From contig CAAFGG010000048.1 in NCBI GenBank assembly GCA_900762325.1, positions 19,528 to 83,527 of the forward strand: 64,000 bases of DNA. Reading direction: 5' to 3'. The notes beneath the pieces are model-generated. The model ran no database searches and was not told the DNA's origin. It saw only the letters and a program-made list of their open reading frames with translations. The translations under genes were made by a program, and so were the position numbers. The DNA comes from an uncultured Collinsella sp. (GTDB lineage Bacteria; Actinomycetota; Coriobacteriia; Coriobacteriales; Coriobacteriaceae). Within the stretch, counting starts at the first letter, position 1. Each line of letters begins with the position of its first letter. Positions 11,875-37,927 of the stretch are shown here, one piece after another.

Positions 11875-11900
11875 GCGCTAGTATAGGGAACAACAGATTC

Positions 11901-11994
11901 GATGCGGGAGTGCCGGCGGTGCAAACCACAAGGCTGAGAGGGCATAGGGCCCAATCCTTTGAACCTGTCAGTTAATGCTGGCGTAGGGAGCATG
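11901..11994 (+). ncRNA. TPP riboswitch
   Basis: GGGAGTGC..GGCTGAGA..CCTTTGAACCTG..TAATGCTGGCGTAGGGAGC upstream of thiM. Confidence 0.95.
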
Positions 11995-12004
11995 CCGCCT
12001 TTAC

Positions 12005-12035
12005 AGGGGCGCTGTCTATGCACAGCGCCCCTTTT
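12005..12035 (+). terminator. Riboswitch expression-platform hairpin
   Basis: aggggcgctgt..acagcgcccct + tttt just upstream of the thiM RBS. Confidence 0.7.
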
Positions 12036-36308: not shown

Positions 36309-36322
36309 CAATCGATATACCA

Positions 36323-36357
36323 AAAACGCGCCCGACGGCATTCCATCGGGCGCGTTT
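36323..36357. terminator. Terminator hairpin between ung and SDR
   Basis: aaacgcgcccga..tcgggcgcgttt. Confidence 0.75.
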
Positions 36358-36358
36358 C

Positions 36359-37039
36359 CTATTCGGGCCAAATAAATTGCGTGCGGCCGGCCTCGCCGCC
36401 ATCGATCAACAGGCTCTGCCCGGTCATAAACCGGTTGGTCACGCCCACAAAGTAGATCCACTCGGCGATCTCTTGGGCAGTGGCCCAGCGCTTAAGCGGC
36501 GTGAGCTCCATAATCTGGCTCCACAGGTGTTCGTCTTCCATCACGCAACGGTTGAGCGGCGTGATAACGCCACCCGGGTCCACACTGTTGGCGATGGCCT
36601 GCGGCGCCAGACGGTTTGCAAGGTTCTTGGTGTAGGCGATAACGCCGCCCTTGCTGGCGGCATAGGCGGGAAACTCCGATCCCGTATGTCCACTCGCCGA
36701 CCCCACATTGACCACGGATTTGATAGCCGGTGCCGGCTTGGCGACAAGCCCCTCCCCCACAAAAGCGTAGCGCTCGGTCACGTTAATGGTGCCATACAGG
36801 TTGGCGGCGATGTCGTCGGCGGAATCCTGCGTACCGGCAACGTTCACGATTACCTGGGGTTCAAGATCGTCTGGAAACGAGTCCGGCTCGCGGACATCAA
36901 CGATCAAATGGCGGTAGCGCTCGTGTTCGATCGCCGCCGGCAGCAGATCAAAGCCCACGACCTCGTGGCCCTCGTCCAAAAAGCGCTGTACGCACGCGGC
37001 TCCGATACCGCCCGAAGCGCCCGTGATCAAAACCCGCAT
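36359..37039 (-). CDS. Classical SDR oxidoreductase
   Basis: TGASGGIG, NVAG, S..YAASK, PG, TGQ.L.IDGG; starts 10 nt after the transporter stop with AAGGAG RBS. Confidence 0.92.
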   Translation of the reverse strand: MRVLITGASGGIGAACVQRFLDEGHEVVGFDLLPAAIEHERYRHLIVDVREPDSFPDDLEPQVIVNVAGTQDSADDIAANLYGTINVTERYAFVGEGLVAKPAPAIKSVVNVGSASGHTGSEFPAYAASKGGVIAYTKNLANRLAPQAIANSVDPGGVITPLNRCVMEDEHLWSQIMELTPLKRWATAQEIAEWIYFVGVTNRFMTGQSLLIDGGEAGRTQFIWPE

Positions 37040-37048
37040 ACTTGCTCC

Positions 37049-37771
37049 TTAGGCGGTTGCATGGCGCTCGAGGTACTCCGAGCCCACATTCTCGCGCTCC
37101 CAGCCGCGCACGACCTTGTAGCCCACGGGGCTCAGGAAGACCTCGCACAGCAGCTCGGCGACAGCGCCGGTCAGCGAGCACATAAGGACCTGCACCCAGG
37201 TCCAACCAAAGAACGTGTGACTCACCACAATGGCAAAGACCAGGTTGTCGATAAACTGGCCAACACCCGTAGACACATAGGAGCGGAAGGCGAAGCTCGC
37301 AAAGTTATTCTTTTTGAGCATACGGCCGAGCGACTGGTTGAGCGTGGAATTAACCACGGCAGAAACGAGCATTGCCAGCGAAGAGCCCAGCACCACGTAC
37401 CAGGTGCCGCCGATGGTGGCGTTAAGGGCGGTGTTGACCTCGATCATGCCGGTGTCGTAGTAGGCGCCCCACATACCGGGCGTGAGCGAGCATGCCCAAA
37501 AGCACAGGCTCACGGCCAGGTTGACCAGCAGCGCGAGGATAGAGATTTTGATGGATGCCTTGGCACCAAAGCGCTTGCAGATCATGTCCTGGCACAAAAA
37601 AGAAACCCAGCTCACCACAAAGCCGCAATCGAGTGCCAGATACGGCAAGCTGATAAGCTCTTTGTTGGCCAGCAGGTTCATCATGATGACGCTCACGAAA
37701 AACAGCGAAACCGTTGCCGCGGGAATGCTCCGCAACAGGACTTTATAGTCCTCCATGACCTTCTTGATCAT
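37049..37771 (-). CDS. VUT/YhhQ-family queuosine precursor transporter
   Basis: NLLANK, F..QD...FG, R..ST..GQF.DN.VF; upstream riboswitch. Confidence 0.85.
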   Translation of the reverse strand: MIKKVMEDYKVLLRSIPAATVSLFFVSVIMMNLLANKELISLPYLALDCGFVVSWVSFLCQDMICKRFGAKASIKISILALLVNLAVSLCFWACSLTPGMWGAYYDTGMIEVNTALNATIGGTWYVVLGSSLAMLVSAVVNSTLNQSLGRMLKKNNFASFAFRSYVSTGVGQFIDNLVFAIVVSHTFFGWTWVQVLMCSLTGAVAELLCEVFLSPVGYKVVRGWERENVGSEYLERHATA

Positions 37772-37777
37772 TATGTA

Positions 37778-37826
37778 CTCCTTTGGTTTTAGGTTTAACG
37801 AGCAGGATATCGGACCCGAACTGCTC
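37778..37826 (-). ncRNA. preQ1 class I riboswitch (type I-like)
   Basis: GAGCAG-UUCGGGUCCGAUAUC-CUGCUC then A-rich tail GUUAAACCUAAAACC abutting AAGGAG RBS. Confidence 0.75.
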
Positions 37827-37927
37827 GGACGCCCCGGTCTTGAGACGACGGTGGGTATGATAGCCGCTCACACGGCATCAGGCAAGCAAACGGCGCGGCA
37901 GCCCCGCAGGCCCACCGCGCCGATGCG

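Follow-up and report, generated by a model that had tools for sequence, protein, structure and literature searches.

A predicted preQ1 riboswitch, a divergent YhhQ/VUT transporter and a short dehydrogenase form a candidate 7-deazaguanine salvage operon in Collinsella and gut phages

The operon lies on the minus strand of a 64,000-nucleotide stretch of an uncultured Collinsella sp. genome (the window), and consists of a structured leader, a transporter gene and an SDR gene, flanked by prfC and a convergent ung. The transporter (37049..37771, minus strand, 240 aa) belongs to a divergent subfamily of the YhhQ/VUT Q-precursor transporters (COG1738, PF02592), and the identity given to it by the original prediction was borne out by Pfam Vut_1, which it matches with 79.8 bits against a cut-off of 27.2. 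It resembles YhhQ/QPTR (PMC5372724, PMC10723273) in this match to PF02592 and in its place behind a preQ1-type leader, but it diverges from them, with a Pfam E-value of ~1e-22 compared with 1e-36 to 1e-45 in nine other Coriobacteriia VUT proteins, and it falls under the TIGR00697 equivalog cut-off (37.2 versus 50.95 bits). As had been claimed, an intact classical SDR with all its motifs present (36359..37039, minus strand, 226 aa) follows after a gap of exactly 9 nt (37040-37048, minus strand), and its SD (TAAGGAG, 37045..37051, minus strand), read from the sequence, overlaps the VUT stop codon. An intrinsic terminator-like hairpin with a U run stands 3′ of the SDR stop (36322..36359, minus strand; -30.6 kcal/mol, z -5.5, with 0 of 200 shuffles as stable) and closes the operon against ung.

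Ahead of the VUT gene is a preQ1-I (type I-like) riboswitch candidate (37778..37827, minus strand), with a 7-bp P1, a 15-nt loop and an A-rich tail into the SD. Both arms of P1 were read from the sequence, CGAGCAG (37827-37821) on the 5′ side and CUGCUCG (37805-37799) on the 3′ side, so the predicted stem GAGCAG/CUGCUC is present but has 7 bp and not 6. The hairpin loop UUCG-GGUCCGAU-AUC (37820-37806) and the leader tail UUAAACCUAAAAC-CAAAGGAG (37798-37778), which ends AAAAC-CAAAGGAG ahead of the VUT ATG at 37771, were read on the minus strand (37820-37778) as the predicted UUCG...AUC loop and A-rich tail running into the RBS. The hallmarks described for type I preQ1-I riboswitches are a UU at the top of the P1 5′ strand, a UC that directly precedes the 3′ strand, and an A-rich tail containing a C (PMC11625349), and all three are found here: the loop starts with UU, as do all 44 loop-UC hairpins, it ends AUC, with the UC invariant in an alignment (A3) that was itself selected for the pattern, and the tail is interrupted by a C at the beta site (AAAAC), as in 20 of 23 A3 rows. 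A pattern search also gave a sigma70-like promoter candidate (TTGCCT, 17 nt, TATCAT; 37857..37885, minus strand), weak alone at one site against 0.7 expected by chance, and a -10-like GCTAYCAT stands 5′ of P1 in all four Atopobiaceae-type leaders among those listed.

Rfam did not return the predicted preQ1 match, either at the gathering score in the window or at E<=10 for the leader, and RF00522 likewise gave no match at its gathering score in 20 loci related to the cassette. One sister leader, L209, which likewise precedes this pair of genes, does match the full RF00522 model, at 22.9 bits (E=0.005) where the gathering score is 39. Elsewhere in the window, a TPP riboswitch was detected at 11896-12006 on the plus strand (RF00059, 56.4 bits). 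While the leader hairpin alone folded only modestly better than shuffles (z -1.66), a pattern made up of a stem of at least 5 bp, a top G-C, a U...[AU]C loop and an A-rich tail was present in 84 of 122 VUT leaders compared with a mean of 3.5 (maximum 7) in 20 shuffles, and this recurrence places the hairpin beyond chance. In a second set, the Atopobiaceae-type family f3, the pattern was found in 26 of 27 complete leaders. Many of the 38 VUT leaders that it missed are from phages and by eye have similar hairpins with slightly different loop ends; preQ1-I-like hairpins with ~20-nt loops were seen among them 5′ of phage VUT genes (L136, L137, L161-L178). The distinct hairpins numbered 72, with 44 of the UU...UC form and 28, from sister cassettes of the window's operon, ending AC (type II-like).

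P1 also covaries, with two-sided changes in six of its seven pairs and an invariant top G-C across the 23 type I-like rows of A3; these rows were hand-picked for their stem, which partly builds in the pairing rate, and the evidence is therefore the diversity of pairs. Furthermore, UCC in the window loop can pair with GGA of the SD, and a loop-SD helix of at least 3 Watson-Crick bp is possible in 63 of 68 hairpins compared with 39 (maximum 47) when loops are shuffled. In the alignment 79.7% of cells were paired at this helix, with two-sided changes, in a register that depends on the alignment. Compared with preQ1-I type I as represented by RF00522 and the Carnobacterium antarcticum model (PMC11625349), the leader has in common the UU, the UC, the invariant top G-C, the C-interrupted A-rich tail and the adjacent SD, but differs in its 15-nt loop (12 nt in the RF00522 consensus), 7-bp P1, longer tail, predicted 3-4-bp loop-SD helix and position below Rfam detection. 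With its hallmarks, a recurring hairpin and a covarying stem, the proposed type I-like architecture held, and the leader is very probably a preQ1-I-type translational off-switch. The leaders thus offer candidate preQ1-I riboswitch variants that escape Rfam, some of them in phage genomes.

The SDR contains TGxxxGxG, Asp31 after beta2, N80, S114 and Y126xxxK130, and its predicted fold is that of a classical SDR/Rossmann protein (pLDDT 96.8), with generic SDRs as the best PDB fold matches (22-31% identity, TM about 0.8). Fold and PDB searches gave no sequence or structure match pointing to a purine-like substrate, the protein falls below every NCBIfam cut-off among 25 families listed, and the automatic names of its relatives are FabG/SDR. 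It has the Rossmann fold, TGxxxGxG and N-S-Y-K tetrad in common with classical SDRs (FabG, aldohexose and 4-hydroxyisoleucine dehydrogenases), however it is shorter, with ~10 residues missing before helix alpha4, and has its own motifs, EFPxYxASKGG and a C-terminal DxGE...FxW. The subfamily is compact (2294 proteins at E<=1e-40 from 7999 candidates scored), and D31, N80, S114, Y126, W185 and E216 do not vary across 138 distinct members, of which 132 retain K130 and all have an acidic residue at position 122; E/D122, W185, E216 and F222 are specific to the subfamily. The invariance of D31 is consistent with the NAD preference predicted from an acidic residue after beta2. None of the 138 members' alignment columns is an invariant Cys, and the sole Cys-rich column is Ala in the window SDR, which also has no QueF family match; nor is the protein a radical-SAM enzyme with CxxxCxxC like QueL.

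In a contig search with the SDR the best 80 of 525 loci were all Collinsella-type, and its closest relatives among them are from Collinsella records including C. aerofaciens (97-99% identity). In a phylum-wide sample the SDR was present in 1 of 201 genomes, its own. The subfamily has named members in Olsenella/Atopobiaceae, Eggerthellaceae, Mollicutes/Enteromonas and Treponema. One ESM Atlas cluster consists of viral proteins throughout; annotated phage and plasmid collections gave no close relative. In a quick tree phage and bacterial rows interleave, with 11 changes of which at least three are forced and with many open nodes; the phage or bacterial labels of metagenomic rows were our own assignments, and we claim no direction of transfer.

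The predicted co-occurrence with yhhQ was found in all three sets of loci: VUT adjoins the SDR in 30/30 f3 loci (from 63 positive genomes), in 67/80 metagenomic loci (80 kept of 436, several misses being contig ends) and in 60/79 viral loci (from 146 stretches), with VUT farther off in 11 more of the latter. In the reciprocal direction, a search with the VUT-subfamily alignment placed the SDR within 4 kb in 64 of 80 viral loci. As the other neighbours vary among the bacterial loci listed, the unit is riboswitch-VUT-SDR. The link to Q and 7-deazaguanine genes that the original prediction depended on also extends beyond VUT, with phage copies lying beside queF-queC-queD-queE-folE or DpdA-type genes, and the SDR is associated with VUT, que and dpdA genes in phages as well as in Coriobacteriia, Treponema and Mollicutes-type hosts, although the genomes and phages are kin, many SDR phages are closely related and the counts overstate independent events. 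The operon is real and conserved, and is a probable riboswitch-led salvage unit with an uncharacterised enzyme.

VUT also occurs without the SDR: one genome (G197) has the riboswitch and VUT with no SDR and no QueT, and 16 of the 80 viral VUT loci have no SDR nearby. About nine of these 16 have an amidase-like gene 3′ of VUT, confirmed as PF01425 in three. Of the 16 records concerned, 15 were searched (four complete) and one contained the SDR; one complete phage has both modules. The VUT clade thus pairs with other converting enzymes, and probably with other substrates too, and the amidase is a candidate second salvage enzyme. Large phages in which a PF01425 amidase-signature enzyme and not an SDR follows VUT are seen at L371:4001-6202, L376:3271-5503 and L365:3808-6089. 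At four other loci (L134:7001-9006, L154:7001-8921, L208 and L211) the phage SDR is directly upstream of an S-adenosylhomocysteine hydrolase gene, with no VUT within 7 kb.

In 22 of the 79 viral loci queF, queC, queE and folE are in the same cluster as the SDR. The DpdA-type profile phrog_887 was present in 35 of 49 viral records and 16 of the 21 complete ones, and four of the five complete records without it have another TGT/DpdA-like protein beside a PurN-like formyltransferase that resembles the DpdN described in bioRxiv 10.1101/2023.04.13.536721. The label of this second TGT/DpdA-like protein comes from ESM Atlas neighbours only (predicted fold pLDDT 38.9), and BLAST of it against the DpdA-like family was negative. 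QueF and QueC were found together in the same 14 of 32 viral records and never apart, and both were missing in 11 of the 21 complete records. As QueC is always accompanied by QueF, de novo synthesis in SDR phages stops at preQ1, and phages with neither gene must salvage. A PDB search with the phage QueE did not have QueL among the matches listed. The phage copies resemble described phage 7-deazaguanine DNA-modification clusters (Dp-1-type dPreQ1; DpdN/DpdM; PMC6884629, bioRxiv 10.1101/2023.04.13.536721) in the queFCDE-folE, DpdA-type, YhhQ and formyltransferase genes beside them, whereas in Collinsella the copy is on the chromosome, and a search of that genome gave no phrog_887 DpdA. A divergent phage clade (L183-L188) combines a DpdA-type gene with the SDR, a glycosyltransferase-like gene and VUT, and some of its members also carry a ParB-like gene. 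A glycosylated deazaguanine DNA modification is possible there; six SDR rows with K130Q, E122D and N163E are probably of this clade. A GNAT acetyltransferase-like gene between VUT-SDR and the DpdA-type gene (L191:9714-10262, also L149, L155, L156, L180 and L190) makes N-acetyl-preQ1 a candidate DNA base.

The window's own genome (G000, 90.6% complete), a relative of C. aerofaciens, encodes TGT, QueA and QueH, with TGT above the TIGR00430 cut-off. QueF, QueT and phrog_887 DpdA were not found in this 90.6% complete assembly, and QueC gave a 22.3-bit partial match only. The motif GGYSVGE of the host TGT keeps the Val of GGLAVG, which is the preQ1-type form, queuine-inserting TGTs being described with GG[LS][AS]G (PMC10723273). 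With a preQ1-type TGT, QueA and QueH present and QueF, QueC and QueT not found, preQ1 is the only base that the host pathway can use. The genome also has another, longer SDR, immediately 5′ of tgt and close to queH-queA (L115:208-1023, contig C52). A nucleoside hydrolase of the host was considered as QueK and rejected, as it is below all four NCBIfam cut-offs listed and on another contig. Searching the same genome with TIGR01210, which we take as a proxy for QueL, gave no match. In dataset S1 of PMC11130926, C. aerofaciens has TGT, QueA, QueH and a QueK homologue, scores 0 for QPTR and has no QueL, QueT or QrtT (19/19 rows of 66 occurrences), and that paper states that more salvage components are still to be found. 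As this published reconstruction is without a QPTR/QueT/QrtT-type importer and without a lyase, the operon fills the transporter gap. QueL is present in 1 of 28 other Coriobacteriales rows of the same dataset, and being this rare in the whole order its absence from cassette genomes is not diagnostic, so that the predicted anti-correlation with queL is uninformative in these bacteria.

The cassette largely excludes QueT, the preQ1 importer. In the class sample QueT was present in 0 of 37 cassette genomes compared with 144 of 164 others, including all 12 Collinsella without the cassette, while in family f3 it was present in 7 of 63 cassette genomes compared with 75 of 88 others. Of the seven f3 genomes with both, QueT is fragmented in two, and in one the SDR is interrupted by a stop. 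Exclusive cassette/QueT splits are seen inside several genera, in class and f3 samples that overlap and whose genomes are kin and not independent. Because VUT stands without the SDR, VUT suffices to explain this exclusion, which is therefore no test of the SDR. QueA occurs almost everywhere in the class (198/201) and so does not discriminate.

We propose that when preQ1 is low the SD would be free and both genes translated, and that preQ1 binding, as the architecture suggests, would form a pseudoknot over the SD and repress them. VUT would import a 7-deazaguanine base, the known function of its family, and an NAD+-dependent SDR would turn an imported base that is unusable by the host TGT into preQ1. 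Of the bases that an NAD-type alcohol dehydrogenase could convert to preQ1, the likeliest substrate would be queuine, which is described as the salvageable form in the gut (PMC11130926) and carries a cis-diol. On chemical grounds, a ketone formed by oxidising one cyclopentenediol hydroxyl (at C4 or C5) would make the C1-N bond labile; preQ1 could then leave by elimination, or by tautomerisation and hydrolysis. In Collinsella the preQ1 would pass through TGT, QueA and QueH to Q-tRNA, while in phages the riboswitch-VUT-SDR module would supply a DpdA-type enzyme, through which preQ1 or one of its derivatives would enter the DNA. We infer that the SDR product is most likely preQ1, as preQ1 is all that the host can use, the switch belongs to the preQ1 type and QueF is the last step of the phage de novo clusters.

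A role for the operon in 7-deazaguanine salvage ending in preQ1 is well supported and we consider it quite probable. Judging from sequence, riboswitch, importer and dehydrogenase most likely turn a scavenged queuine form into preQ1, and NAD+-dependent release of preQ1 from queuine by the SDR, the chemistry of the original prediction, is our best guess, with the balance about even. More tentatively, and on balance a little less probable, the subfamily may be an iron-sulfur-free NAD+-dependent queuine-to-preQ1 enzyme and a third bacterial queuine salvage route, serving Collinsella aerofaciens and further gut bacteria. It would also have been exchanged with gut phages, where, under a preQ1 riboswitch, queuine that is scavenged or comes from host tRNA would be made into a base that protects their DNA.

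Other substrates have to be weighed against queuine. The SDR could make preQ1 from a different derivative of preQ1, N-substituted or oxidised, that is set free when phage DNA or tRNA is turned over, such as N-glycosylated preQ1, epoxyqueuine or, by reductive amination, a 7-formyl base. Such derivatives are probably present in the gut, since SDR phages encode formyltransferase-, GNAT- and glycosyltransferase-like proteins beside DpdA-type genes, and the replacement of the SDR by an amidase in one VUT clade, with one complete phage carrying both modules, speaks for the same possibility. We nonetheless regard it as unlikely, if a serious candidate, queuine being the gut salvage form described in PMC11130926 and these alternatives hypothetical. 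A different division of labour, in which VUT simply imports preQ1 and the SDR, as an accessory of the same regulon, clears or recycles a by-product or inhibitory analogue and is dispensable for preQ1, would fit the VUT-only cassettes in G197 and the 16 viral loci, and the QueT exclusion needs VUT only. However, no by-product-generating lyase was found in the host, and the SDR is intact across bacteria and phages, even in phages with the full de novo route, which makes an accessory role distinctly unlikely.

The SDR might also be a non-homologous preQ0 (nitrile) reductase that replaces QueF, with VUT importing preQ0, and in keeping with this QueF was not found in the host and in family f3 is present in 0 of 63 cassette genomes compared with 6 of 88 others. 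QueF is a catalytic Cys enzyme, whereas the SDR subfamily has no invariant Cys; we know of no SDR that reduces a nitrile, and in the 22 viral loci where queF clusters with the SDR such an enzyme would be redundant. Even though E. coli YhhQ is described as a preQ0 transporter (PMC5372724), we hold this replacement to be improbable. Finally, the lack of an Rfam match in the window leader and the FabG/SDR names of the relatives would suit an unrelated FabG-like passenger, or a leader that is not a preQ1 switch, but the SDR is under every NCBIfam cut-off listed, its link to VUT, que and dpdA genes spans phages, Coriobacteriia, Treponema and Mollicutes-type hosts, and the sister leader matches RF00522 at E=0.005, so that we consider this very improbable.

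Of known systems, queK-qrtT-queL of Clostridioides difficile, as described in PMC11477304, is alike in having a preQ1-I riboswitch over a transporter and an enzyme, a host unable to make preQ1 and a proposed conversion of q to preQ1. It differs in that the Collinsella operon has YhhQ/VUT in place of the ECF S-component and an NAD-type SDR where the radical-SAM lyase stands, with no hydrolase in the operon and with the module also found in phages. We found no description in the literature of an SDR in Q salvage, or of this cassette, in a search that lay outside the tables of Yuan et al. 2019 and McCown et al. 2014, which may list the gene. Neither 'dehydrogenase' nor 'salvage' occurs in the main text of PMC6884629 and bioRxiv 10.1101/2023.04.13.536721, 'dehydrogenase' is absent from PMC5372724, and no SDR appears where PMC3766115, PMC6593275 and PMC7694415 treat preQ1. 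The operon thus offers a candidate new salvage enzyme, and if our reading is true the SDR would add to a known salvage pathway an enzymatic step that had not been described. Were queuine the substrate, an abundant gut commensal and many gut phages would consume a micronutrient on which the human host depends, without a radical-SAM enzyme.

Related arrangements were also seen in phages and in a prophage-like region. In small (~43 kb) gut phages (L151:12357-13187 and 14 related loci) a formyltransferase and PolA adjoin a TGT/DpdA-like protein that falls outside phrog_887 (phrog_19058), and searches of four complete records of this type gave neither QueF nor QueC. A large phage (L193:5973-8825) has a canonical-type VUT, the SDR and an IMPDH/GMP reductase-family gene, with no phrog_887 match. 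In a prophage-like region of a Coriobacteriaceae genome (G069; L292:2444-3984), a DpdA-type gene is in an operon with a canonical VUT.
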